A stretch of DNA of 64,000 nt from Patescibacteria group bacterium (GCA_024239035.1 JANBVK010000001.1:423062-487061), one strand, 5' to 3'. Shown: positions 1 through 63,819, numbered from the stretch's first letter. The notes: generated by a model from the letters alone, not told the origin. Program-made: numbers and translations.

Positions 1-270
1 CCGGGGGCGCCACAGATAAGAGAATGCTGACTGAAGAATTTTGGGCAGGCCTTGGCCGTTTATCTTCACAAACGCAAGAGCGATAGCCGCCCCGACTAAA
101 ATAGCGGTGACTATGAGCCCGAAGAAGAAGTTGAAAATATAAAAAGAAGCGAAACTCATTCCTCCTGCGGCGGCCAGATACAAAAACTGCGGCAGAGTTA
201 AGGGACCGATAATCTTTGGTTTCTGTTCAATGAATTGTGGAATTTGGAACGTAGCCATAGTGGTGGTCAT
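1..270 (-). CDS. PrgI/VirB3-like T4SS membrane protein (partial; 3' end beyond window)
   Basis: Minus-strand reading frame from ATG at 270. The translation begins MTTTMATFQIPQFIEQKPKIIGPLTLPQFLYLAAAGGMSFASFYIF, followed by a transmembrane segment. This N-terminal motif pattern matches the PrgI/VirB3 family as I recall it. The ATG overlaps the TGA stop of the upstream gene (ATGA), suggesting translational coupling. Confidence 0.5.
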   Translation of the reverse strand, partial: MTTTMATFQIPQFIEQKPKIIGPLTLPQFLYLAAAGGMSFASFYIFNFFFGLIVTAILVGAAIALAFVKINGQGLPKILQSAFSYLWRPR

Positions 271-1748
271 CGTAAATCTACTATATTCCCTTCAATAGTT
301 GCCTGCCCCGAGTTACGTCGAGGGAGTTGACCTTTTTTGATGTTACCCTCTTTTTTACCCAGAGGGGATTGTGATGCTTGCGGTTTCTTCTCTATTTGTG
401 TCTTTAATGCTGGTTTCTTTTTTTCTCTTAGTGGTAGAATTTTTTCTGAGGGTTGTGGTGTATTGTTTCGCTCGAGCGTCTCAAGATTAATTACCTCCTT
501 CTCAGGCTTACCAAAAGGGGAAAGCGGCGTTCGACTCTCGCTGTAATGCACCACCCTTTTCTTTTCTTTTTCTTCTTTCACCCGCCGTAGCCTTGGCGAA
601 GGCGGGGCGTCTAACTTCGCTTCCGCGCCGGGTACTTCAATTTTTACCTTAGTGGGCGACGTACCCGGAGTTTTTGGTTTCATAAAACTAAAAGGAAAGT
701 CAAAACCCTTAAATGGTTTCTTATCTTCTTCAACCATTGGTTTTTCTTCGTGAAGGACTAGGGGTTTACCCTGAGTAACATCGAAGGGTTTACCCTCTTC
801 TGTTTTCTGCGTTAATACGCTTCTATGTTCTTCGGTGGGTCCGCGTCTTTCCTCTTCTACTTTTTCTATTCTAATCTTCTGTTCTTTTAACCCTTCTTCG
901 CCGAATTTTTTCAGAGAGATTGTTTTTTCCCCAACAGTTGCTTCTTTAAGTGGTCCTGTAATGGGATCATATACTTTCCTGATGCCATTTCTTAATTGGG
1001 AAAATATCTTTTTACTCAACTCTTGACCAATAGTTGTCGCAATTCGACTATCAATATTTACTGCTTCTTGTATTTCTTTAGTGATATCATCAAGATGAAT
1101 AAAACCCATTAGGACTCGACTGCTGATCATTGCTATTGAACTAATTTTTTCTTCAGAGAAATGATTAGAACTCCCAATTCTAAAAATGTCTTCCGCGTTG
1201 GCGTAAGAGAAAATCTCATTCTTTAAATTCTGAGGCAGCGATTTATATCGTTGATTTACTTGTTTTGGGGGTAGTGCTCCAATAAGTTTAGTTAGACCGA
1301 CGCCTAATTCTTGAGCGAGATTAGCAATTAGAAAAGTATAAAGGGGGGGTCTCTTGGTTTTTAGCCAATTTAATTTTGCTTCTTCGGTTTCTCCTGGTAT
1401 TGCTTCTATAATCAACTTCTGGAACTCTTTTTGGGCTTCTGGATATAAATCAAGGTTTTTATAGATGTTAGCTAAAGCCTCTCCGCTTGCCGTCTCCAGA
1501 ACAGCTTGAGCAATAGTTGGGAGAACGTTGTTTCTCCACTCTTTCTCGCTCAAATTCGCTCGGAGCATCGGAAATCCTTTAATAATACCCACCCAGAAAG
1601 TATTCTCCCACTCTGCCGCCGGAATCGTTTTTAAAGAAGTCCTAAGACCCTCTCCAGCCTTTTGGTAGTTTTTGCTCTGGAGTTCATCCCAAATATCTTC
1701 TTTGAGAATCGGAAGCCAATAAAAGTTTTGAGTATTTATATTGGGCAT
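267..1748 (-). CDS. hypothetical cytoplasmic protein with a K/E/P-rich disordered C-terminus, in the T4SS-like operon
   Basis: 493-aa ORF. No transmembrane segment or signal peptide is visible. The C-terminal half is low-complexity and rich in Lys, Glu and Pro. It sits in a tightly packed minus-strand operon with the VirB6-like and PrgI-like genes. Confidence 0.45.
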   Translation of the reverse strand: MPNINTQNFYWLPILKEDIWDELQSKNYQKAGEGLRTSLKTIPAAEWENTFWVGIIKGFPMLRANLSEKEWRNNVLPTIAQAVLETASGEALANIYKNLDLYPEAQKEFQKLIIEAIPGETEEAKLNWLKTKRPPLYTFLIANLAQELGVGLTKLIGALPPKQVNQRYKSLPQNLKNEIFSYANAEDIFRIGSSNHFSEEKISSIAMISSRVLMGFIHLDDITKEIQEAVNIDSRIATTIGQELSKKIFSQLRNGIRKVYDPITGPLKEATVGEKTISLKKFGEEGLKEQKIRIEKVEEERRGPTEEHRSVLTQKTEEGKPFDVTQGKPLVLHEEKPMVEEDKKPFKGFDFPFSFMKPKTPGTSPTKVKIEVPGAEAKLDAPPSPRLRRVKEEKEKKRVVHYSESRTPLSPFGKPEKEVINLETLERNNTPQPSEKILPLREKKKPALKTQIEKKPQASQSPLGKKEGNIKKGQLPRRNSGQATIEGNIVDLR

Positions 1749-1758
1749 GATTTAGAAT

Positions 1759-3525
1759 TTATGGAGTTCCTCCTCCGCCTGTTCCGCCACCAGCCTGAGC
1801 TTGACGCCGGGCCTCTTCCGCAATCATTTCTTCAACTTGGGCGCCAAGTCCTGCGTCTGATCTCGTTTCTGGATAAGTTTCTCGCATTATTCCAGGTTCT
1901 CTAAAAGGTATTCTTGGGCCATAAGGCGTTCCAGTTTCCCCTCCCCGACCATAGAGAAAACTAAGACGAACTTCTTTTGTTAAAGCGTCCTGAGGTATTG
2001 AGCTTAAAGCCTCAATAGCAGCCTGTCTTACTTGAGCGTTATCACTCCTTGCGTGGAGGCTGAGAGATGCTACAATTTCTACTTTTTCAGGATTTGAGGC
2101 TGTAGTAAACCTTCTCGCATTTTCTTCGATTGACCTACCTCTTACCTCTTTTCTAGCTTGAGCCGTTAATGCTTCTCCAGCTAACCTCGCTTCGCTTAGT
2201 CCCCTTCCAACCTGTCTTAAAGGAGCAGTTAGGAAACGACCAGCTCTCCCGAATACTCTTCTTCCAAGGCCCCCAGTTTGACCTAGGTTTGCTCCAACCC
2301 CTTGTAATCCTGCTGTTAATTTTCTTCCCGTAACACCCCTCAAGGGGTACGTACCAGTCTGTAACGCTTTCCTCCCAGCCCACGCTCTAGTCCCCTTACC
2401 AGCTCTTGAAGCAATACCCATCGCTCCGGCCGAGCCTTTTATACTCATCTGGGTCGCTATCCAAAGCCCGCCAATTAGGATGCCAGCTAACGTTATCATT
2501 TGTGCTCCTTGAACCATAATGTTTTGAAGAGAACCTGAAAAAAACTCTCCTCCCCGAATGCCACCCTGCTCTTTACCTAACTTACCTAATTCCTCAACGC
2601 TTACGAGAGCAAGGTAAGTGAAGAACATGACTGCTGGCGCGAAGAATACCCATTCCATGAATTTACTCCACCATTTTGTGAATTGTCCAGCTAAGTTGGG
2701 AATGACCCAGAAAAGCCATACGATTGGAGATACGATTATAAGAAAAGTTAAGTAGAGATACCGTAACAAAAGCATAAAAGCAAAGGCGAGCAAGACGAAA
2801 GCCGCGATGAGAGTAAAGACAACAGTGAATATAAGACCTGTTATTGAGATAAGTACTGCGGTTCCAATTCCCCCTGTGAGCCCGCCTACTTCTTCTTCCG
2901 GATTTGGTGGAATAGGATCATCGCTCTCAATTAAAAACCGTTGAGGTCCGAATGCACTTGATAGGCTGCTGCTTAGATCTAACCCTAAAGCTCCCCCACC
3001 GGAGGTGACCCTCTCTGCGAAAACATTTGTTAGGACGTGGGAAAAATTAATGAAAACGCCGGCAATTGCGAAACTGAAGTTAACTAGAATAGCGGCAGCA
3101 ATGAGCTTAGGGAGAAGCGCTTTTACCCCATACTGCTCTCTTCGCAGTATGGTTGCAAAAGCTATTACGATAATGAAGAGTACGAAGCCGAGATTGGCAA
3201 TATCGCGGACAATCCTCCATCCAATATGAACAAGAGCATTACTATCATCTAACACCGTAAGATTGAGGCCGAGCATCAAGTTTACAAGGAAACCACTAAG
3301 TACAAAGAGTACTCCCCCAATAAAGTTTAGGAGGAACGCGGTGATTCTGAAGCCGAAGGCGAAGAAATCTGCTACGAGCGTATCACCAATCCCAGCTTGT
3401 GACACCTCAGGTACTAGAAAAAAACCAATTAATAAAAGCAATACAGCTCCTAGAAAGAATTTACTATTAAAGAATCTTGTGACTTGTTTGTTTTTAAGAT
3501 GCATCATGGAGATTGAGAAGGGCAA
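1759..3525 (-). CDS. TrbL/VirB6-like polytopic membrane protein with a Gly/Arg-rich C-terminal tail
   Basis: 588 aa. At least six hydrophobic helices are visible. The C-terminus is a long Gly/Ala/Arg-rich repeat region ending in GGGTGGGGTP. This architecture is typical of TrbL/VirB6 conjugation channel proteins. It is operonic with the PrgI-like gene. Confidence 0.5.
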   Translation of the reverse strand: MPFSISMMHLKNKQVTRFFNSKFFLGAVLLLLIGFFLVPEVSQAGIGDTLVADFFAFGFRITAFLLNFIGGVLFVLSGFLVNLMLGLNLTVLDDSNALVHIGWRIVRDIANLGFVLFIIVIAFATILRREQYGVKALLPKLIAAAILVNFSFAIAGVFINFSHVLTNVFAERVTSGGGALGLDLSSSLSSAFGPQRFLIESDDPIPPNPEEEVGGLTGGIGTAVLISITGLIFTVVFTLIAAFVLLAFAFMLLLRYLYLTFLIIVSPIVWLFWVIPNLAGQFTKWWSKFMEWVFFAPAVMFFTYLALVSVEELGKLGKEQGGIRGGEFFSGSLQNIMVQGAQMITLAGILIGGLWIATQMSIKGSAGAMGIASRAGKGTRAWAGRKALQTGTYPLRGVTGRKLTAGLQGVGANLGQTGGLGRRVFGRAGRFLTAPLRQVGRGLSEARLAGEALTAQARKEVRGRSIEENARRFTTASNPEKVEIVASLSLHARSDNAQVRQAAIEALSSIPQDALTKEVRLSFLYGRGGETGTPYGPRIPFREPGIMRETYPETRSDAGLGAQVEEMIAEEARRQAQAGGGTGGGGTP

Positions 3526-5009
3526 GCATACGTCACATTCAAAACATCCTCACATTGAACAAGCTCTTCTTTTATTCGCGTTAAGTCTGCCTGAACCCGC
3601 GTCTTATCAGCCTCTATGCCTGTTTGCATGCTCTGTATTATGCTGGCGAATTGCCGGGCGATGATTCTTGATGCTCCTGCTCTGAGTACTCCCTCAGCAT
3701 TGTCAAGAAGGGTCGATGAAGCATTTAGGGAGTTAGATAATTCAGTAATTTCTACAAGGGTTGGATTTTGGGTGCACGTTAAGCCGCGGCCAGTCTGGCA
3801 ATTAATTAGCATTTGAGTTGTCGATGAGAGTTCTGTATTCAAGTTAAGAGTTTCTTCTATGGTGGCCCGGGTAGCTCCGATTTCAGCGAGAGCTACCTGG
3901 GATTCTTGTTCCGCTTGTGTGTCTTCGATTGTGTTTTGGAGATCACTTTGTTGTTGTTGATACTCTATGCATGCTGCTTGGGCAGAGGAGCTCAATCGTG
4001 GGTCATTACAGTCAGTTTGTGGGGTGTTTCCTGAAGGCCCTAGATTTTGGACTCCTTTCACCCCCTCTGCAATGAGCCGGTTAATGGACGCGTCAAATAT
4101 GGCACCGATGTAGGCTGTGAGCTCTTGAGCATTTACTAGATAATCTATATCAGCATATAGAGATCTTTCTAAACCTTCAGCAATAGCAGTGCCCGGCGTG
4201 GTAACTCTATCTTGGTGGCAAACCCATTCAATATTATTAATACCCGTTACAAGTACGGGTGGCGGTTGGGACGGGTCAGGGTAGGGTCGGATGAAGCTGT
4301 CGCTGTTAAATGGATACAACTTAGAAACGGCCTTGCCGCTATCATCGGTACCTCTAGCTTCCCATTCAAGACACTGTTTTGTGCTCAAAAACCCCCTCCC
4401 CGAATTTATTTCTTGTCTTAGTGCGTCTGTTTTTTGGGCTTCTCGTCTCTCGACCTCGCTCTGTGCAAGGATTTCAATGCCCCACCTGTTATTTTGAGGT
4501 CTTAGAAGTTCTTGATAACCGATCCAGCCGCCGCTCGTAAAACTATCACGAAACCGCTCGACGTTACCGACAATATCGTCAAGCGTGCAGCTCACCCGTT
4601 GGGAAAAGACCGGCCGTTCAAGCTGAAACTGGATTCTAACGGGGCTAATACCTCTGCATAGATCGCCTAGTCCTATTTCCCGGGCTACATCACCAACTGC
4701 TGCCTGGCCTGCGTCTTCTAAGAAACCACCGAAGTCAGTTACAAATTTAGGATCACCGTCACCTTGAATCCAACCGATAGTTTCATCAACCAGCTGATCA
4801 AGCAATCGTTTTTTAAGCGCCTCGAGAGCCGACTTTAATGCAAGCTCTGCGGCTGATTTTGTAACATCCCATATCCAACCTACGACACTCTCCGGGTTTA
4901 TGGTAATATCAGCGATGCCAAGGAACGCTTTTGCTCGGAACGGATAAGTGGTTCCTGTAACGAGCAGAACGCTTATGAGCAAAGCAGAGATAATTTTTTT
5001 TGTTCTCAT
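3504..5009 (-). CDS. secreted protein of unknown function (signal peptide present)
   Basis: 501 aa. The N-terminus MRTKKIISALLISVLLVTGTTYPFRAKA looks like a SPase I signal peptide. Several Cys pairs are present. The coding region overlaps the VirB6-like gene by 22 nt. Confidence 0.45.
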   Translation of the reverse strand: MRTKKIISALLISVLLVTGTTYPFRAKAFLGIADITINPESVVGWIWDVTKSAAELALKSALEALKKRLLDQLVDETIGWIQGDGDPKFVTDFGGFLEDAGQAAVGDVAREIGLGDLCRGISPVRIQFQLERPVFSQRVSCTLDDIVGNVERFRDSFTSGGWIGYQELLRPQNNRWGIEILAQSEVERREAQKTDALRQEINSGRGFLSTKQCLEWEARGTDDSGKAVSKLYPFNSDSFIRPYPDPSQPPPVLVTGINNIEWVCHQDRVTTPGTAIAEGLERSLYADIDYLVNAQELTAYIGAIFDASINRLIAEGVKGVQNLGPSGNTPQTDCNDPRLSSSAQAACIEYQQQQSDLQNTIEDTQAEQESQVALAEIGATRATIEETLNLNTELSSTTQMLINCQTGRGLTCTQNPTLVEITELSNSLNASSTLLDNAEGVLRAGASRIIARQFASIIQSMQTGIEADKTRVQADLTRIKEELVQCEDVLNVTYACPSQSP

Positions 5010-5946: not shown

Positions 5947-6660
5947 ATGATTGAAACTAAAATGATAGCCAAAATTACTAAATCACCGTACGGGATTATT
6001 TCCCTTTCTATTGTTTTTATTTTAATAAGTGTTGTTCCATTCTTCTTCTTTTTAGGAGATGACAGCAACTGGAGAGAAAACCTATGGAATGCTTTTCCAA
6101 TTACGCTCTTGGCTGTCTTTGGTATGCTTTTTCTTCCGCTCTTTACGATACGTTACGTGTTTAAAGAAAATCCTAAGCGATTTGGGTGGGGTATTCCGGA
6201 AAATATGAAAAAAGCAGCATCTCTTACCGCGTTGGGGATTCTAATTTTTTTACCGATAATATTTTTTTTCAGTAGTCGGGAATCATTCCAAAATTACTAC
6301 TTAGTGGGGGAATTTTCGCTTGGGCAGTTTTTGCTTGTAGGGGTCTTAGCGTCACTTGTGTATTACACCGCCGAAGAGTTTCTTTTTCGCGGTTTTTTAT
6401 TTTGGGGTTTGTGGCATAAGGTTAAATATCATAGTTTTTGGATAACTAGTTTAATATTTACTTTTTTCCATTTAACCAAACCACCCTTAGAAGTTATTTT
6501 CGCCTTTTTTCTAAGCTTGGTTCTTTCTTACCTTTCTTTAAAAACAAAATCATTCATTCCTGCCGTCGCAGTTCACTTTGCAATAGCGCTAGTTTTAAAT
6601 GTTTTGATAATATTTTTTTCGGGCGCCGGCATTTCACCTGGAGGTACTATCCGTTTTTAG
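5947..6660 (+). CDS. CPBP-family (CAAX/Abi) intramembrane metalloprotease
   Basis: Polytopic membrane protein. It carries the three CPBP motifs in order: EEFLFRG, FTFFHL and HFAIALVLN. Confidence 0.7.
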   Translation: MIETKMIAKITKSPYGIISLSIVFILISVVPFFFFLGDDSNWRENLWNAFPITLLAVFGMLFLPLFTIRYVFKENPKRFGWGIPENMKKAASLTALGILIFLPIIFFFSSRESFQNYYLVGEFSLGQFLLVGVLASLVYYTAEEFLFRGFLFWGLWHKVKYHSFWITSLIFTFFHLTKPPLEVIFAFFLSLVLSYLSLKTKSFIPAVAVHFAIALVLNVLIIFFSGAGISPGGTIRF

Positions 6661-11448: not shown

Positions 11449-11539
11449 CAAACGGCTCAACGACACCCACCGTTGAGCCGTTTGGATATTAAGACGGGTC
11501 TGACGCCTCAATTTCCTCTATATGGAGGAAATTGAGGCG
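11449..11539 (-). terminator. two tandem strong hairpins downstream of the phosphohexomutase gene
   Basis: First hairpin: ccaaacggctcaacg / cgttgagccgtttgg (15-bp stem). On the minus strand it is followed by a T-run. Second hairpin: cgcctcaatttcctc / gaggaaattgaggcg (15-bp stem). Confidence 0.5.
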
Positions 11540-25088: not shown

Positions 25089-25499
25089 ATGAAATACATA
25101 TTGATAATATTTATTACGCTCTTTATTGTCTTCCCTCTTTTTCCAGGAGTTGCTTCTGCTCAACTGAACATTTGGGAAGACACAGGACAGCCGGGAAGAG
25201 CGACGTGTAATATAGACGGACCTTGTACTTTTTGTGACGCGCTCAAAGTTACTTCAAACGTTGTCCAACTCCTTTTCCAAGTAGCAATACCGATTGCGGT
25301 CGCGATGATTATATATGGTGCCCTCCGCTTAATGTTTGCCGGCGGATCTCAAGAACGGATAACCCAGAGCAGGAAGATTATGACAAGCGCTGTAATTGGT
25401 TTGATTATCGCCCTTAGCGCCTGGATTATTGTAAATACCCTGCTTCACGTTTTAACCGGTAATCCCAGTTTCCCCTGGAATGAGATTACATGTTCTTGA
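25089..25499 (+). CDS. T4SS pilin-like protein (VirB2/TrbC-type topology), paralog 1
   Basis: Signal peptide ending ..PGVASA|Q. Short Cys-containing segment (CNIDGPCTFCD). Two hydrophobic helices follow (VAIPIAVAMIIYGALRLMFAGG ... AVIGLIIALSAWIIV). 136 aa. Confidence 0.5.
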   Translation: MKYILIIFITLFIVFPLFPGVASAQLNIWEDTGQPGRATCNIDGPCTFCDALKVTSNVVQLLFQVAIPIAVAMIIYGALRLMFAGGSQERITQSRKIMTSAVIGLIIALSAWIIVNTLLHVLTGNPSFPWNEITCS

Positions 25500-25502
25500 A
25501 AA

Positions 25503-25925
25503 GTGAGCTGTTATAATAATTATATGAAACTTTTTGGATTATTTATTGTTTCTCTTGTTGTCTTCGCTCTTGTTTTTTCCGCACCGCTTGCTTTTGCGCA
25601 GGTAGGTACTGGTGGTCCTACCGTTGGAACAGGGAGTGGAGGTTGTGGAGAAGGATTATTACCAAATCCTCTAGGAGGAGAAACATGCACCATTCCCGAA
25701 TTATTAGAGAGAATCGTTGGTTTTCTCGTCCTTATTGCCTCGCCGATTGCAGCGGGAATGATTATTTATGGTGCATTTCAGATACTTTTTGCCGCCGGTG
25801 ACCCAGAAAAGTTTAAGATAGGAAAACGCACAATTCTTTACACAATTGTTGCCTATGCTATAATATTCATCGGTTGGGGAATTGTAAGTATTATTGAAGA
25901 CGTATTAGGAGGAGGAGGATTATAA
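25503..25925 (+). CDS. T4SS pilin-like protein, paralog 2
   Basis: Signal peptide ..PLAFA|Q. Cys-containing Gly-rich segment. Two hydrophobic helices with the shared motif IASPIAAGMIIYGAFQILFAAG. Confidence 0.5.
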   Translation: MSCYNNYMKLFGLFIVSLVVFALVFSAPLAFAQVGTGGPTVGTGSGGCGEGLLPNPLGGETCTIPELLERIVGFLVLIASPIAAGMIIYGAFQILFAAGDPEKFKIGKRTILYTIVAYAIIFIGWGIVSIIEDVLGGGGL

Positions 25926-25974
25926 AGAGCCCCAACTCGATATGGTATAATAATCCCAGAAAAGGTCGAAGTTT

Positions 25975-26349
25975 TTGTTCACGACTAGTTATATGTCTAT
26001 TACGTCTATTAAAAAAATCGCTTTGTTTCTACCATTAATTATAATGGTAGCCCTACCTTTAGTAGGATTTGCCCAACCAGCAGAAGCTCCCATAACGGAT
26101 ATTGCAGGAGTTGAGAGCTTGCTAAACAGGATTCTTAACATTGTTTTCGTCATCTTCTTTATTATTGCCGTACTCTTTATTATTTTAGCTGCGTTCGGTT
26201 ATTTAACCGCTGGCGGGGATGATGAAAAGATAAAATCAGCAAAACAAAAGTTAATCTATGCAATTGTGGCTATTGTGGTTGCGCTCTTGGCTACGGGAAT
26301 AGATAATATTGTAGAAGGTATTTTGGAGGGAGGAGAACTTACCCGATAA
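25975..26349 (+). CDS. T4SS pilin-like protein, paralog 3
   Basis: Signal peptide ..VGFA|QP. Two hydrophobic helices (IVFVIFFIIAVLFIILAAFGYLTAGG ... LIYAIVAIVVALLATG). Same architecture as the two upstream paralogs. Confidence 0.5.
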   Translation: MFTTSYMSITSIKKIALFLPLIIMVALPLVGFAQPAEAPITDIAGVESLLNRILNIVFVIFFIIAVLFIILAAFGYLTAGGDDEKIKSAKQKLIYAIVAIVVALLATGIDNIVEGILEGGELTR

Positions 26350-28970: not shown

Positions 28971-29468
28971 CTACTCGCTGGAGATGGCGATACGGTCGCT
29001 CCGGAAGAGATATGCGTTATTGTACCCATTCTCCAAAAGGTACCAGCGGCATTTCCAGTATCCACCCATCTGAGGGAGGCTTAAGCCGAGCCGTCCATAG
29101 TCATGGTTGGAATCTACCACAACTATACCTGGGAAAAGAATAGAAATACTACCGCGGAGCGCTACTAATTCAGGGAATTCGTTTTGATGTTCTACGAGCC
29201 AGGCAGCGTGCTGATAACCAAGTAGGAAATCTAGCTTCGGTGCGATGCGGCACTCATACTCAAATGGGTTGATATAATCCTCATCGTCCCGCAGAATAGT
29301 GCCTAGTCGGAATGTAACCTCCCCCGTTGGAGAACTATCCCGCTCAATCCTCTTAATTGAGGAACGATCCATTCGGACGTTCTCTAGGGTTGGCCGCCGA
29401 AGACCTGGGATCTGTAACGTGAGTTCATCAGCTAGGATGATAGCCTCAGCAGTTGGCTGTTGTGACAT
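28971..29468 (-). CDS. hypothetical protein (165 aa) under promoter cassette copy 3
   Basis: ORF with an upstream GGAGG Shine-Dalgarno sequence. No recognisable motifs. GC-richer than neighbouring genes. Confidence 0.45.
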   Translation of the reverse strand: MSQQPTAEAIILADELTLQIPGLRRPTLENVRMDRSSIKRIERDSSPTGEVTFRLGTILRDDEDYINPFEYECRIAPKLDFLLGYQHAAWLVEHQNEFPELVALRGSISILFPGIVVVDSNHDYGRLGLSLPQMGGYWKCRWYLLENGYNNAYLFRSDRIAISSE

Positions 29469-29530: not shown

Positions 29531-29583
29531 ATAATATATCATAGAGTATATAGTTTGTCAAATTAAGGTTTAGGTTATATAAT
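29531..29583. promoter_or_regulatory. promoter cassette copy 3; bidirectional
   Basis: On the minus strand TTGACA-17-TATATT serves the 165-aa gene. On the plus strand TTGTCA, a 17-nt spacer, then TATAAT (29555..29583) sits about 40 nt upstream of tRNA-Leu. The shared TTTGTCAAA core is a near-palindrome used as the -35 element in both directions. Confidence 0.55.
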
Positions 29584-29621: not shown

Positions 29622-29703
29622 GCCGAAGTGGCGGAATTGGCAGACGCGCCAGGTTTAGGACCTGGTGGGGAAACCCGTGAGAGTTCGAGTCTCTCCTTCG
29701 GCA
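29622..29703 (+). tRNA. tRNA-Leu(TAG), type II with a long variable arm
   Basis: Acceptor stem gccgaag/cttcggc. Anticodon stem ccagg/cctgg with loop ttTAGga. T-arm gagag-ttcgagt-ctctc. CCA is not encoded. Confidence 0.8.
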
Positions 29704-29704
29704 C

Positions 29705-29897
29705 ACCTGAAATTTTAGATGCCTTTTGTGGTATCTAAAATTTTATCTGAAGGTAGGGAATCGAACACGAAGGGGGGTCGGGGGAAAGTTTGAGGTTCCC
29801 CCGTGTTGGAAATTATTCAAAACCGAGGGTTGTGAAAGCGCACCGAGCACATAAAGCCTTATGTGCTCGGGAGCAGTGAGATTCTCTCCTTCGGCAC
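29705..29897 (+). repeat. tRNA-trailer element copy A
   Basis: Order: AT-rich hairpin (29710..29743), conserved core (29752..29838), GC hairpin (29843..29870), then a 15-nt duplicate of the tRNA-Leu 3' end (29883..29897). The core is about 80 percent identical to the 63596..63683 core on the opposite strand downstream of tRNA-Ser. Confidence 0.6.
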
Positions 29898-29902
29898 TAA
29901 CT

Positions 29903-29938
29903 TGAACGGCTCAACGACATTCCTCGTTGAGCCGTTCG
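29903..29938. repeat. palindromic hairpin sharing its stem sequence with the 11449..11487 hairpin
   Basis: Sequence gaacggctcaacga-cattcct-tcgttgagccgttc. The 12-nt stem core aacggctcaacg is identical to the stem at 11452. Confidence 0.5.
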
Positions 29939-33992: not shown

Positions 33993-34064
33993 CGGGCATG
34001 TAGCTCAATGGCAGAGCGCCAAGCTTATACCTTGGTGGTTCCTGGTTCGAATCCAGGCATGCCC
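33993..34064 (+). tRNA. tRNA-Ile(TAT) (anticodon UAU, an AUA decoder)
   Basis: Acceptor stem gggcatg/catgccc. D-arm gctc-aatggca-gagc. Anticodon stem ccaag/cttgg with loop ctTATac. T-arm cctgg-ttcgaat-ccagg. Confidence 0.65.
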
Positions 34065-34084
34065 ACCCTAATAAAATAATTAGA

Positions 34085-34165
34085 GGGCGTTTAGCTCAGC
34101 CCCAACGGGGCCCCTTCGGGGTGGTAGAGGTGTCGGGGGGCGTATTTCTCCGTTTACACCCTATT
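34085..34165 (+). pseudogene. degenerate partial copy of the tRNA-Val 5' half (pseudo-tRNA)
   Basis: gggcgtttagctcag...tggtagag...cgtttacacc mirrors the acceptor, D-arm and anticodon loop of the downstream tRNA-Val. An insertion of about 22 nt (ccccaacggggccccttcgggg) lies in the D-loop. No T-arm or 3' acceptor strand is present. Confidence 0.45.
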
Positions 34166-34301: not shown

Positions 34302-35195
34302 TTATTTTCTTCTGCGAGCGTGAAACGCTTCGTGTATGTCCCGGAGGTCTTTATTGGTGAGATGGGTGTAAACTTGAGTAGTTGAGATGTTCGCGTGGCC
34401 TAGAAGTTCCTGCACCGAGCGAAGGTCGGCACCGTTTATAAGGAGATCGGTTGCGAATGAATGGCGAAGCTGGTGAACATGCACCTTTTTGGGAATACCG
34501 GCTTGTCGTCCTCGAAGGTCTACTGCTCTTTGCACTGCCCGTGGTGTAATGCGGTCGAGCGCACCACCACTTCTTGAGAGACTTATAAATAATGCTTCAT
34601 TAGCATCTTCTCGTTTGTCTAAATATTTCTTGAGCGCTCGCTTTGTACCAACGGATAAAAAAACAACCCTTAACTTGTCTCCCTTACCGCGTACGGAAAT
34701 TTCCCCGCGACTCATATCTATTTTACGGTTTAAACTACAGAGTTCTGAGAGACGAAGACCGGTTGAAAATAAAGTTTCTAAAATTGCTCTGTCGCGAAGT
34801 GAACGTAGATCATTGCCCTTTGGAGCTTGGAGCAATCGCTCAAGCTCGTTGTAATCCAACGTTTCGATGTCCCTCCTCACAACTTTTGGAAGCTCAATAG
34901 TTTCAGGCGGTAATACCTTAATACCGCGTTTCACAAGATATTTTAAGAAGTTTCTGAGAGCAATTACGTAGTAACTTTGAGTGATTTTTTTAAGTTTACC
35001 CCGGCCGAGCAATATGCGGAAATCTCGAATCACTTCTTGAGTGATTTCTTTAGGAGAACGAATGTGGGATTTTTCTATAAATACACGAAGATATTGTTCG
35101 TAATTCTCCCGTGTTTTTGGGGAGCGGTTTTTTTCAATTTCTAGGTAATCAAGATAATCTTTTAATAATTTTTCTATTTCAGACATTAATTTCAT
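34302..35195 (-). CDS. tyrosine recombinase XerC/XerD family
   Basis: The C-terminal catalytic region HQLRHSFATDLLINGADLRSVQELLGHANISTTQVYTHL carries the R..HxxR..Y residues. The probable start is MKLMSEIEKLL (35195) rather than the 35399 extension. It lies 40 bp from the tRNA-Val 3' end. Confidence 0.8.
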   Translation of the reverse strand: MKLMSEIEKLLKDYLDYLEIEKNRSPKTRENYEQYLRVFIEKSHIRSPKEITQEVIRDFRILLGRGKLKKITQSYYVIALRNFLKYLVKRGIKVLPPETIELPKVVRRDIETLDYNELERLLQAPKGNDLRSLRDRAILETLFSTGLRLSELCSLNRKIDMSRGEISVRGKGDKLRVVFLSVGTKRALKKYLDKREDANEALFISLSRSGGALDRITPRAVQRAVDLRGRQAGIPKKVHVHQLRHSFATDLLINGADLRSVQELLGHANISTTQVYTHLTNKDLRDIHEAFHARRRK

Positions 35196-35348
35196 TATAT
35201 CAGAAGTGTCGTAAAAGGAGGATTGTTGCGTCAAAAATTCTTTTGACGCAAAATCCCGCGGAGATCTTACAACGCCTTGAAAAATGCCATAAAATCTCCA
35301 TCTTTGACATTTTTTCGCTTTTATAGTAGCCTTGTATTTAACATCTAA

Positions 35349-35615
35349 ATGCTCTCTAAAAGAAAGAAACAGTTTGCTATTAAGGAATACCAAAAACATA
35401 AGACTGATACGGGATCCGCGGAAGTACAGGTTGGGCTTTTGACGAAGCGGATTAAAGAATTAGCGGATCATCTAAAAAAGCACCCGAAAGATCACCATTC
35501 TCGACGGGGACTTTTGATAATGGTGGGTAAACGTAGAAAGTTTTTACAATACCTTCGTCGGGAAAATGAAAAAGTTTACGATAAACTGGCGAAGAAACTA
35601 AAATTAGAGGTTTAA
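35349..35615 (+). CDS. rpsO: 30S ribosomal protein S15
   Basis: 88 aa. [48 protein letters not shown] matches S15. Confidence 0.85.
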
Positions 35616-62073: not shown

Positions 62074-63549
62074 ATGCACAGGTTTTTTGAAATTTTACCG
62101 GGTAGCTTGGTTTGGCTTACGTTCCTCTTGATGTTTTTGTTTTCCTGGAAATTTCCGTCTGCGGTAGCTATTTTTTTTATCCTCTACACATTTTACTGGC
62201 TGTTCAGAATTATTTACCTGCATTTTCACTTACGTTTCTCTTTTAACGAGGCGCGGGAAAACCTGAAAGTTAACTGGTTGGAGAAATTAAAGCAATTGAC
62301 ACCGAGTAACTGGCAAGAGATTTACCATTTAGTTGTTTTGCCAATGTATAAAGAACCAATTGAAGTGATTGAAGAAACTTTCAAGGCCCTTAAGGCGACT
62401 GATTATCCTAAAGACAGAATTATAGTGGTTCTTGCGACCGAGGAGCGAGCCGGCCTAGAAGCGAAAAAGACTGCTTCAAAAATAGAGAAAAAGTTCGGTA
62501 AAGATTTTTTTAAATTTTTAGTTACCAATCATCCTGATAATTTACCAAACGAGATTCCAGGTAAGGGTTCTAACGAGACTTGGGCTACAAAACAGGCAAA
62601 GGAGAAAATAATTGACGTCCTTGGTCTTAATTACGAACGTATCATTGCCTCTGTTTTTGATGTTGATACCCAGGTGCCGCCGGGATATTTTGGCCGATTA
62701 ACTTATGTGTTCTTGACATGCGATAATCCCCAGAGATCGAGCTATCAACCCATACCGCTTTTTGTAAACAACATATACCAAGCTCCGGTTTTCTCAAGAG
62801 TGATGTCTTTTTTTCCGACTTTTTGGCAGATGATGCAGCAGTCCCGATTCGAACAGCTTAGCACTTTTACCTCCCAGGCGATGCCTTTTAAGGCCTTGGT
62901 GGAAATTGGTTTTTGGGATACGCATTTAGTTTCGGAGGACTCACTTGTCTTCTGGAAATTTTACTTTCATTATGATGGCGATTGGCGCACCGAGCCGCTA
63001 TACTATCCCATCTCGATGGATGCTACCTCGGCTAAAACATTGTGGGGGACGGCAGTAAATCTTTATAAACAGCAGCGCCGTTGGGCATGGGGAGCGGAAA
63101 ATATCCCTTATATGTTAAGCGGCTTTGTAAAAAATAAGAAAATCCCTTTTCGTAAAAAGGTTTTTTGGACGTTTGTTTTTATGGAAGGATTTCACTCTTG
63201 GGCTACCTCTCCTTTTATTCTTTTTATACTTGGTTGGTTGCCACTTTTTCTAGGCAGTTACGAGTTTAGCTTGACGCTCTTGTCGTATAACTTTTCCAGG
63301 ATATCGGGTTTTATATTAAATTTTTCCGTTGCAGGCCTTATTGCCTCGGCGGTTTTAAGCATCGTCTTATTACCACCTAAGCCGAAATGGTTTCGTAAAA
63401 AACACTACATCGTTTATTTCCTGCAGTGGCTTCTCGTTCCTGTCCTCTTGGTTGTCTTTAGCGCGATCCCCGCAGTCGAGTCTCAAACCCGGCTGATGTT
63501 GGGCGGCAGGTTCCGTCTCGGATTCTGGCCGACGCCGAAAAATCGTTAG
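62074..63549 (+). CDS. family-2 processive glycosyltransferase (cellulose/chitin-synthase-like) membrane protein
   Basis: N-terminal transmembrane helices. GT-A core with D, DxD (FDVDT), ED and QQRRW (QxxRW) motifs. A C-terminal transmembrane bundle follows. Confidence 0.6.
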   Translation: MHRFFEILPGSLVWLTFLLMFLFSWKFPSAVAIFFILYTFYWLFRIIYLHFHLRFSFNEARENLKVNWLEKLKQLTPSNWQEIYHLVVLPMYKEPIEVIEETFKALKATDYPKDRIIVVLATEERAGLEAKKTASKIEKKFGKDFFKFLVTNHPDNLPNEIPGKGSNETWATKQAKEKIIDVLGLNYERIIASVFDVDTQVPPGYFGRLTYVFLTCDNPQRSSYQPIPLFVNNIYQAPVFSRVMSFFPTFWQMMQQSRFEQLSTFTSQAMPFKALVEIGFWDTHLVSEDSLVFWKFYFHYDGDWRTEPLYYPISMDATSAKTLWGTAVNLYKQQRRWAWGAENIPYMLSGFVKNKKIPFRKKVFWTFVFMEGFHSWATSPFILFILGWLPLFLGSYEFSLTLLSYNFSRISGFILNFSVAGLIASAVLSIVLLPPKPKWFRKKHYIVYFLQWLLVPVLLVVFSAIPAVESQTRLMLGGRFRLGFWPTPKNR

Positions 63550-63731
63550 CGGAGGGTAGAGGGAATCGAACAAAATAATTTGGTTAACAAATTATTTTCT
63601 CAGAACCCTCGGTTCTGAGTAATCTCCAATACGGGGAGACCTAAAACTTCTCCCCGACCCCCTCTCGTGTTCGAATCCCACTGACAAGATATACAAAAGG
63701 GATATCACAAGGACATCTCTTTTGTATATTT
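63549..63731 (-). repeat. tRNA-trailer element copy B
   Basis: Downstream of tRNA-Ser on the minus strand. Order: AT-rich hairpin (atatacaaaag/cttttgtatat), conserved core (plus 63596..63683), AT hairpin (aaaataatttg-gttaac-caaattatttt), then a 23-nt near-copy of the tRNA-Ser 3' end (63549..63571 versus 63732..63754). Confidence 0.6.
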
Positions 63732-63732
63732 G

Positions 63733-63819
63733 CGGAGGGTAGAGGATTCGAACCTCTGAGGGGATTTCTCCCCAACCGCATTTCGAGTGCGGCGCATTAG
63801 ACCGCTCTGCCAACCCTCC
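63733..63819 (-). tRNA. tRNA-Ser(CGA), type II
   Basis: Acceptor stem ggagggt/accctcc. Anticodon stem ccgca/tgcgg with loop ctCGAaa. Long variable arm. T-arm agagg-ttcgaat-cctct. Confidence 0.75.

Follow-up and report, generated by a model that had tools for sequence, protein, structure and literature searches.

The tails of tRNA genes are classic landing pads for integrases, and a 2002 classification of integrase sites by Williams is said to include a T-loop sublocation. Homing cassettes can duplicate the 3' end of a host gene, as do GIY-YIG open reading frames (ORFs) at fungal mitochondrial atp6 and T4 SegB in a tRNA cluster. Small RNAs can also derive from tRNA trailers, for example the 3'ETS-leuZ sponge of E. 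coli. Here we analyze two short inserts, copies A and B, that follow tRNA-Leu(tag) and tRNA-Ser(cga) in a stretch of 64,000 nt from the genome of a Patescibacteria group bacterium (hereafter the window). The two inserts belong to a structured, non-coding insertion family that is specific for the tails of tRNA and transfer-messenger RNA (tmRNA) genes, that duplicates the tail of its target, and that carries an antisense arm matched to that target. What this family keeps at the landing pad is not a protein but a fold and an antisense copy of the target.

Two inserts in the window and their family

Positions are in window numbering; other loci bear L-numbers, and each has its own numbering. ARAGORN finds five tRNA genes in the window, two of which are the targets of copies A and B. 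The parts of the two copies are as follows.

29622..29704, + strand: tRNA-Leu(tag), the target of copy A (ARAGORN; Rfam tRNA, 57.6 bits)
29690-29704, + strand: first direct repeat (DR1) of copy A, the last 15 nt of tRNA-Leu(tag)
29705-29897, + strand: copy A insert, after tRNA-Leu
29709..29744, + strand: T1 hairpin of copy A, arms 29710-23/29730-43, 14 bp including one G-T pair, loop TTTTGT (sequence reading and folding)
29746..29766, + strand: IR-L of copy A, the antisense arm tctgaaggtagggaaTCGAAC, an imperfect reverse complement of tRNA-Leu positions ~53-71 (pairing tables and folds)
29761..29841, + strand: conserved core of copy A, TCGAAC-ACGAAGGGGGGTC (alignments, RNAalifold, covariation test)
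29780-86/29796-802, + strand: P2 of copy A, inside the core
Within the core of copy A, + strand: J, GTGTTGGAA
29816-24/29828-36, + strand: P3 of copy A, loop GAG, inside the core
29843..29870, + strand: P4 of copy A, a variable hairpin with a 10-bp GC stem, arms 29843-52/29861-70
29871-82, + strand: 3' motif of copy A, GAGCAGTGAGAT
29883-97, + strand: second direct repeat (DR2) of copy A, the displaced duplicate of the tRNA-Leu tail
29901..29938, + strand: T2 hairpin after DR2 of copy A, outside the element, a member of a recurrent ACGGCTCAAC...GTTGAGCCGT hairpin family
63732..63819, - strand: tRNA-Ser(cga), the target of copy B (ARAGORN; Rfam)
63549-63731, - strand: copy B insert, after tRNA-Ser
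63690..63731, - strand: T1 hairpin of copy B (sequence reading and folding)
63669..63689, - strand: IR-L of copy B, TCTTGTCAGTGGGAT-TCGAAC, whose reverse complement GTTCGAATCC is a 10-nt match to the tRNA-Ser T-loop
63599..63674, - strand: core of copy B, TCGAAC-ACGAGAGGGGGTC, with P2 at 63633-39/63649-55 and P3 at 63599-63619
63549..63598, - strand: P4 and 3' end of copy B, with an AT-rich P4 hairpin (63572-98), the T-loop-like GTTCGATTC (63563-71) and DR2 (63549-62)

The tail repeat of copy A is exact over 15 nt (tctctccttcggcac, 29690-29704 and 29883-29897). Copy B has the same order of parts, with a 14-nt tail repeat (CCTCTACCCTCCGC) at 63732-45 (DR1) and 63549-62 (DR2). Long runs are invariant in an alignment of the two cores, and a motif of 21 specified bases common to both (TCGAACACGANNGGGGGTCGGGG) has two exact occurrences in the window versus 0.00 expected from shuffles. 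The two copies are thus confirmed as homologues, with the coordinates and sequences that a sequence-only reading of the window had given them. The AT-rich hairpin that this reading had placed in copy A is present, but is 14 bp long with one G-T pair rather than 11 bp. The core as delimited in that reading spans 29755-29841. Folded with their own tRNAs, copies A and B give z = -7.6 and -6.2 relative to shuffles. Neither T1 hairpin in the window drew a terminator call. A promoter-like TTGTCA-17-TATAAT lies upstream of tRNA-Leu(tag) at 29555-29583, and a hairpin nearly identical to P4 of copy A is found within the element at L001.

Many more copies of the element exist. Exact-pattern scans with TCGAACACGANNGGGGGTCGGGG covered one genome per species, public metagenomes and viral contigs. 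The genome collection gave nine loci, eight of them named as Parcubacteria-type members of the candidate phyla radiation (CPR; ultra-small bacteria, here Liptonbacteria, Colwellbacteria, Jorgensenbacteria and Paceibacterota) and one labelled Saccharibacteria. The metagenomes gave 20 loci. After removal of duplicates, these 29 loci beyond the window represent ~23 distinct copies. There were no matches to the element in the viral contigs, in INPHARED phages or in PLSDB plasmids.

The element is about 130-200 nt long and encodes no protein. All copies except one orphan (L024) lie directly 3' of a tRNA gene, an intron-containing tRNA gene or a tmRNA gene, on the same strand. As the window pair had led one to expect, nearly all of the further copies lie behind such genes, each with a tail repeat specific for its target. 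The tRNAs targeted are those for Leu, Ser, Asp, Lys, Thr, Glu, Arg, Ile, Cys, Tyr and Val, and the tmRNA target is at L023. Group I introns are present in the target tRNA genes at L009 (from Rfam) and at L010, L018 and L022 (from similarity of the upstream sequence).

The window is part of a 729,382-bp scaffold (ENA ERZ23499938, ZHAO22-1 scaffold_1). A third and more divergent copy was found with an nhmmer profile of 20 copies, used in place of a covariance model; it lies ~5 kb past the window end, after tRNA-Ser(gct) (L032 16972-17150). In the ~105 kb of this genome that were examined, three of 17 tRNA genes are occupied. The three copies are divergent and of different subtypes, with no sign of a recent burst.

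From the tRNA outward, the parts of the element are DR1, T1, IR-L, the core, the 3' motif, DR2 and then the native flank. DR1 is the tail of the tRNA itself, which remains intact beside the insert. T1 varies in sequence among copies. In many it is built like an intrinsic terminator, with an A-run, a GC stem and a T-run; it is missing or without a T-run in four copies and in two that lie in ribosomal RNA (rRNA) operon spacers (L013, L021). IR-L ends in TCGAAC and is a ~15-nt reverse complement of positions 53-67 of the resident tRNA, which comprise the T-loop, the 3' strand of the T-stem and ~2 bases at the start of the acceptor. The core consists of TCGAAC-ACGAAAGGGGGTC, P2 (GGGGAAA/TTTCCCC), GTGTAGGAA, an optional hairpin, P3 and the variable P4. 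There are two subtypes of P3, NNNNAACC-GAG-GGTTNNNN and a GGGC-GGAA-GCCC hairpin, and P4 is variable in sequence yet found in most copies. The conserved 3' motif is GAGCAGTGAGAT or GAGCGACGTTCGAyT, with GAGCGACGTTCGAT as an alternative form. DR2 follows it and comprises a second 3' strand of the T-stem, a second 3' strand of the acceptor and 1-3 more bases. In most complete copies the direct repeat is 13-19 nt long, and the native flank past DR2 often opens with another terminator hairpin. Neither the antisense arm nor the terminator form of T1 in many copies was part of the sequence-only reading.

The family is apparently undescribed: neither a published nor a curated description was found. 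Within the window, Rfam detects only tRNAs at gathering score, and nothing credible between 29500 and 30100 at E<=10. In seven related loci at E<=1, it detects only tRNAs and the group I intron within the upstream tRNA of L009. The sequence-only reading had allowed for a known RNA family, and Rfam offers no match for the element. Full-text searches found no description of it; the closest paper, from 2026, deals with group I introns that interrupt Patescibacteria tRNAs (PMC13011429); it accounts for the intron-bearing targets and is silent on downstream elements.

Insertion at tRNA tails and a nuclease cassette at the same site

Syntenic loci in relatives, reached through homologues of the downstream ykuK-like gene, show that the element is an insertion. 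In L037 and L038, a few bases after tRNA-Leu(tag) lead into AATTGACAAA, the promoter region of ykuK. These are empty sites, tRNA-Leu(tag) without the insert, of the kind that the sequence-only reading had proposed to look for, and they place the restart of the native flank just past DR2 of copy A. In L036, which is the closest relative at 87% protein identity, and in L039, an ORF of 97-116 aa for a GIY-YIG nuclease begins 2 nt after the end of tRNA-Leu(tag); past this ORF, the tRNA tail is repeated over 19 nt and the native flank resumes. The structured element in the window sits at exactly this point. The element is an insertion, as the same tRNA-Leu site is empty in two of these loci and filled in the other two by a GIY-YIG cassette with the same tail duplication. 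At a second site, the tRNA-Ile(tat)/tRNA-Val(tac) pair is unoccupied in the window, and the same pair in L029 carries the element.

The T2 hairpin recurs in L032, behind a tRNA-Ala that is unoccupied, and at window 11452-81; the flanks of L036, L037 and L038 lack it. T2-type hairpins after unoccupied tRNAs, together with the empty sites, support the view that DR2 and onward is the original sequence and that DR1 and T1 came with the insert. The ACGGCTCAAC-loop-GTTGAGCCGT hairpin is found at window 11452-11481 and 29906-29935, L032 12537-12566, L034 268-297 and L008 3050-3072. It is common to the window genome and one Jorgensenbacteria metagenome-assembled genome, frequently follows tRNA genes, and is either a conserved terminator or a separate small repeat family. 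A contig from an independent short-read assembly of the same sample (Logan SRR8799001_7839, L031) ends 75 nt upstream of ykuK, just past DR2 of copy A, which would fit a repeat confusing the assembler.

The GIY-YIG cassettes form a family with ORFs of 96-116 aa, located 2-5 nt after tRNA-Leu(tag) or tRNA-Leu(cag) (L036 3631-3947, L039 1501-1820, L040-L049 ~1200-1575). After the ORF come two hairpins and a second tRNA tail, a duplicate of ~19 nt. In L039, the acceptor sequence of DR2 is different yet self-consistent, and in L040 the gene is Leu(cag) and the duplicate resembles the Leu(tag) tail. This looks like a family of homing cassettes with 3'-end duplication. The sequence-only reading had taken the direct repeat as the footprint of an integrase and had not included these cassettes; a homing-endonuclease cassette at the same site with the same duplication weakens that footprint as the only reading of the repeat. 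The 3' end of the cassettes (GAGCGGCGAG|TCC) was considered as a homologue of the 3' motif of the element, and the likeness is judged coincidental: L039 and L040 show a hairpin arm and a T-loop remnant there. Other GIY-YIG ORFs also adjoin tRNAs. One, in L006 (6050-6352), is flanked by the genuine tRNA-Ser(gct) gene and by a duplicate of its 5' part. Another lies 75 nt past DR2 of the element in L015 (1046-1279; 5'-deleted in the orthologous L014 at ~750-800), and a further one comes after tRNA-Trp (L014 2375-2500).

Might the element itself spread by homing, as a passenger that lacks a homing endonuclease gene? It would be copied by homologous recombination or double-strand-break repair after GIY-YIG cleavage of empty tails, with the tRNA body and DR2 plus flank as homology arms, the nuclease encoded elsewhere, and a fold that is incidental or otherwise selfish. 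Several observations fit. Cassettes occupy the exact tRNA-Leu(tag) site with a similar tail duplication (L036, L039), a related cassette at tRNA-Leu(cag) has a Leu(tag)-like DR2 (L040-L049), and the self-consistent acceptor in L039 looks as if a whole donor tRNA had been co-converted. In addition, all four GIY-YIG ORFs of element loci adjoin tRNAs, and the assembly JAZDPW01 holds both the element (L008) and a cassette (L039). However, cassettes and element have no sequence homology by nhmmer, and a tblastn search of the window copies detects no trace of GIY-YIG. A conserved fold, covariation and a target-matched arm (see below) are unnecessary for spread that is driven by homology. We therefore regard this route as quite unlikely.

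Variation among the copies points to both mobility and constraint. L001 has a ~240-nt structured insertion within the P2 position, the tRNA-Lys locus of L004 has three tail copies and a variant core, and L025 has an additional partial copy. The tmRNA copy (L023) has the form expected if an L011-like element had lost the stretch between two of its GGGGGTCGGGG direct repeats. Nesting, tandem arrangement and deletion, as these sequences suggest, are typical of mobile DNA. In contrast to the neighbouring T2 region, which is far more diverged, the orthologous copies L014 and L015 differ at only four of 126 positions. Between L009 and L019, the core and its pairing are kept while the peripheral hairpins are wholly replaced. 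Both comparisons show signs of constraint.

The element could also be an inert scar, that is, what remains of larger integrase-bearing elements once an internal deletion has fused their attL and attR arms. The direct repeat spans the T-loop to the tRNA end, as in classical integrase sites of the T-loop sublocation, tmRNA is also targeted and a deletion derivative exists (both L023), and the gene for an Xer-type recombinase lies 39 nt from tRNA-Val in the window. This gene (34302-35399, - strand; 365 aa, with a ~78-aa N-terminal extension) encodes the sole integrase-family protein across the loci. It ends 39 nt after the unoccupied tRNA-Val(tac), and the best integron-integrase score of its product is 119.5 bits versus a cut-off of 265. 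Across all loci, no integrase homologue was found in or beside any copy, and an all-against-all ORF comparison revealed no protein family in at least three loci. The genome, metagenome, viral, phage and plasmid collections yielded no larger relative. In addition, the covariation described below points to selection on pairing, and ~26 copies at at least 20 tRNAs, alike in order and size, are not expected from independent deletions. We consider an inert scar highly improbable. Remnants of attL/attR were one of three explanations offered by the sequence-only reading, and they are unlikely given so many copies and targets with one uniform architecture and neither an integrase nor any other protein recurring nearby. 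A miniature non-autonomous family is the best fit of the three, and the last, a trailer small RNA, is possibly how the element acts.

Several observations were made around these tRNA genes. In the position that the Xer-type gene has in the window, L036 carries a gene of the Phage_integrase family. The tRNA-Ile of the window (33994-34067) has the anticodon TAT (UAU), where bacteria usually have a CAU/lysidine tRNA-Ile2; L029 and L036 have the Ile(tat)-Val(tac) pair too. Between the two genes, at 34075-34160, is a degenerate 5' half of tRNA-Val reaching to the anticodon loop (TTTACAC), and this partial duplication is broken by a 22-nt GC hairpin (CCCCAACGGGGCCCCTTCGGGG). An IS200-like Y1 transposase gene (231-232 aa) flanked by hairpins like repetitive extragenic palindromes (e.g., TTTACGAGGTTWAACCTCGTAAA) is just upstream of the empty tRNA-Leu(tag) in L037 (3136-3831) and L038 (3030-3728, - strand), and is missing at the syntenic place in the window and L036. 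The window ORF at 28971-29468 was considered as its homologue, and there is no homology.

Antisense arm, fold and possible modes of action

The antisense arm matches the tRNA beside which it lies. IR-L agrees with its own tRNA at 6.84 of 9 variable positions, versus 4.3 of 9 for other tRNAs, and none of 100000 permutations was as high. For 18 of 25 copies, the arm fits its cognate tRNA best. IR-L tracks positions 59-60 of the tRNA's own T-loop, not the T-loop-like string beside DR2, and its length clusters at ~15 nt. DR1, T1 and IR-L fold into one long hairpin in every copy examined; where copies are well preserved, the final ~6 nt of the tRNA are looped out of it. A tRNA or pseudo-tRNA on the opposite strand, hinted at by GGGAATCGAAC, was also considered; ARAGORN and Rfam find none, and the T-loop-like string is an inverted copy of the T-arm of the neighbouring tRNA.

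The helices of the core appear to be under selection. P2 and P3 were tested in 14 aligned copies (16 pairs), with 500 shuffles and with controls in which the partner was slid. Cells are paired in 94.6% of cases, and 7 of the 16 pairs are altered on both sides (20 cells), a number that none of the 500 shuffles reached. Sliding the partner by 1-3 columns makes the pairing collapse. Covariation of P2 and P3 thus indicates selection on pairing. The compensatory change noticed earlier between the 7-bp stems of copies A and B (GGGGGAA/TTCCCCC versus GGGGAGA/TCTCCCC) is confirmed and is strengthened by the larger alignment.

Mismatches give a hint as to which strand might carry the fold that acts. 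Single mismatches are G-T in 16 cases and A-C in 4, whereas composition predicts approximately equal numbers; the sense strand is G-rich (34% G versus 23% C). From the G-T excess only, the evidence leans mildly toward a fold that acts on the tRNA-sense strand.

We tentatively favor a reading in which the element is a non-autonomous cassette that targets tRNA tails in a structure-dependent manner. A factor acting in trans would recognize a single-strand fold, above all the DR1-T1-IR-L hairpin. The mobile unit would comprise a replacement tRNA tail, T1, the antisense arm and the core, and would enter by recombination inside the segment from the T-loop to the tail. Such recombination would shift the original tail (DR2) downstream, where it drifts. 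Since the element encodes nothing, it would depend on a factor in trans. This could be a host recombinase, Xer-type or other, or the element could use break repair or homing as the GIY-YIG cassettes do at the same sites. The conserved fold, including the long hairpin, would be what the machinery recognizes, either in RNA transcribed together with the tRNA or in single-stranded DNA. Its nearest analogues would be folded recombination sites such as an integron attC or the CTX-phi attP hairpin. At a new tRNA, the arm might be re-matched by template-switch correction within the hairpin.

Several points weigh against this proposal. Neither a trans-acting enzyme nor an autonomous relative that shares the ends of the element was found. 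We also found no near-identical copies at different tRNAs that would point to recent jumping. The re-matching of the arm to each new tRNA is unexplained, and IR-L is eroded in both window copies (5 of 9). P2 and P3 have no one-sided (G-U) intermediates among the aligned copies. The raw minimum free energy is better on the tRNA-sense strand in 17 of 20 copies, but the advantage is lost after composition-matched shuffling (z -3.0 versus -3.4), and this preference is a composition effect that we do not use as strand evidence. Finally, long retention of intact copies in a streamlined 0.73-Mb genome fits a host-useful RNA just as well.

Such an RNA is a possible, though doubtful, alternative. Inserted originally, the element would have been retained by the host as a small RNA or a cis-acting RNA module in the tRNA trailer, transcribed from the tRNA promoter by read-through of T1. 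The arm would pair with the T-arm of the tRNA that it follows, or alternatively with DR2 so as to close a helix P1; purine-rich junctions would bind protein or RNA, and the module could serve in tRNA maturation, turnover or quality control. The element is always co-oriented with, and immediately downstream of, its tRNA. Like bona fide structured RNAs, it has a conserved core, covarying helices and variable peripheral hairpins. The G-rich sense strand and the excess of G-T over A-C mismatches fit an RNA. So do the copies between tRNA-Ile and tRNA-Ala (L013) and before 23S (L021) in rRNA-operon spacers, which have no terminator-type T1 and must therefore be co-transcribed. Divergent subtypes persist in one streamlined genome, and the match of arm to tRNA is perfect despite a diverged DR2 in L002, L006, L007, L025 and L028.

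Other observations fit poorly with a trailer RNA. The low occupancy of tRNA genes in the window genome, together with relatives in which the same tRNA is unoccupied, indicates that the element is dispensable. T1 in many copies resembles an efficient terminator placed ahead of the element, and pairing of the arm with the T-arm would compete with folding of the tRNA. DR2, which drifts, has no explanation under an RNA role, and the strand preference is gone after correction for composition.

The arm also invites a more speculative view. Its ~15 nt could be a programmable guide and the core its scaffold, in a nucleic-acid-guided mobile cassette that is inserted by a host or unlinked enzyme, or by the RNA itself, and whose arm is rewritten for each tRNA. 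We think this unlikely. Together with the cassette recognized through its fold, which we favor tentatively, these views differ in what the element would mean. If the fold is a recombination substrate, then folded-site recombination would extend past integrons and CTX-phi to tRNA genes. If the element acts as RNA, it would represent a novel class of structured RNAs linked to tRNA biology in CPR bacteria, which are poorly understood. A guide function of the arm would make the element a compact insertion system that is retargeted naturally, and a new class of guided mobile element in minimal-genome bacteria. The element also explains broken assemblies and spurious small ORFs beside CPR tRNA genes and, together with the GIY-YIG cassettes, shows that several kinds of selfish DNA compete for tRNA tails in these minimal genomes.

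Some neighbouring features may be noted here. The genes surrounding copy A are housekeeping genes, among them those for FtsH, GyrA, RecA, FtsK and S1. A cluster resembling type IV secretion system (T4SS) and conjugation genes (TrbL-like, PrgI, TraC-like, VirB4/TraG-type ATPase) is at the window start (267-5009) and in L034 (8308-14412), and T4SS pilin genes are at 25089-26349. The T4SS genes could bear on DNA entry into these cells. In L006, the same 20-nt palindrome, CCTGCCTGCCGGCAGGCAGG, is found in the tRNA-Ser pseudo-5' half (6065-6084) and in the P2 loop of the element (6544-6563), and may be a tiny palindromic repeat. The motif GAAGGTGTCTTA(A/C)GCGGGGG(T/C)CGGGGTTTTC is located just upstream of tRNA-Thr in L004 (6300-6426) and within the enlarged element of L001 (4680-4720). 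The L004 copy is preceded by a diverged string like the tRNA-Thr tail. This motif is a second one with a G-run.

Comparison with known systems

Several classes of mobile or structured sequence were considered and rejected. The element is not a miniature inverted-repeat transposable element: its inverted repeat (IR-L versus GTTCGA plus DR2, or DR1) is internal and derived from the target, its left outer end (T1) varies, and it has no fixed terminal repeats. Direct repeats of often 14-15 nt resemble a casposon target-site duplication, but no terminal inverted repeats or Cas1 were seen. Group I and group II introns are rejected, as Rfam intron models have no match to the element and the upstream tRNA is complete. 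No reverse transcriptase, DEDD recombinase or TnpB/IscB lies beside any copy, as a retron, an IS110 bridge RNA or an IS200-605 omega RNA would have. Readings as a hammerhead, hepatitis delta virus (HDV) ribozyme, C/D-box RNA, external guide sequence/RNase P or inverton were dropped for lack of the defining motifs or genes.

Among trailer-derived small RNAs, the likeness lies in the co-oriented location in the 3' trailer and in possible release by tRNA 3' processing. Those RNAs are not insertions, however, and do not have a tail duplication, an arm antisense to their own tRNA, or a multi-helix fold shared across tRNAs. Free-standing homing cassettes resemble the element in arrangement, a gene with a replacement 3' end followed by cargo and the displaced 3' end, as seen for GIY-YIG at the same tRNA-Leu (L036, L039). 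In contrast, the element has no ORF, is not homologous to them, and carries an antisense arm and a structured core.

Integron attC sites and the CTX-phi attP(+) site, both acted on as folded substrates (the latter by XerCD), share other features with the element. Stem structure is kept over sequence, and a long imperfect hairpin has a looped-out segment. GTT/AAC triplets stand at the foot of the hairpin, here derived from the T-loop palindrome GTTCGAAC. The element is non-autonomous, and an Xer-type recombinase is encoded in the genome. When compared with the attC core sites (RYYYAAC/GTTRRRY), TTCGAAC/GTTCGAA supply the AAC/GTT triplets but not the full consensus, and amount to the T-loop palindrome. 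No dif-like site was recognized. Unlike integrons, the element has no integron integrase, attI or cassette array and occurs as singletons at tRNAs, and a conserved multi-helix core with purine-rich junctions is a property of the element and not of attC.

In layout, the element resembles integrase islands at tRNA and tmRNA genes (T-loop sublocation) and the derivatives of these islands that lack an integrase (CIMEs, cis-mobilisable elements). Like them, the element is inserted 3' of an intact tRNA or tmRNA gene, with a repeat that runs from the T-loop/T-stem to 1-3 nt past the gene. It supplies a working tail and displaces the old one, and it can accrete in tandem (tRNA-Lys in L004). Of the features that define an element of the tyrosine-integrase type, the tail repeat and the restored tRNA are present and an integrase gene inside the element is not. 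It differs in its size of ~150-200 nt, in having no integrase in cis or nearby, in its covarying fold, in adding an inverted copy of its target, and in the targeting of at least 20 tRNAs by one family. The element is best filed among tRNA-tail-targeting insertion elements.

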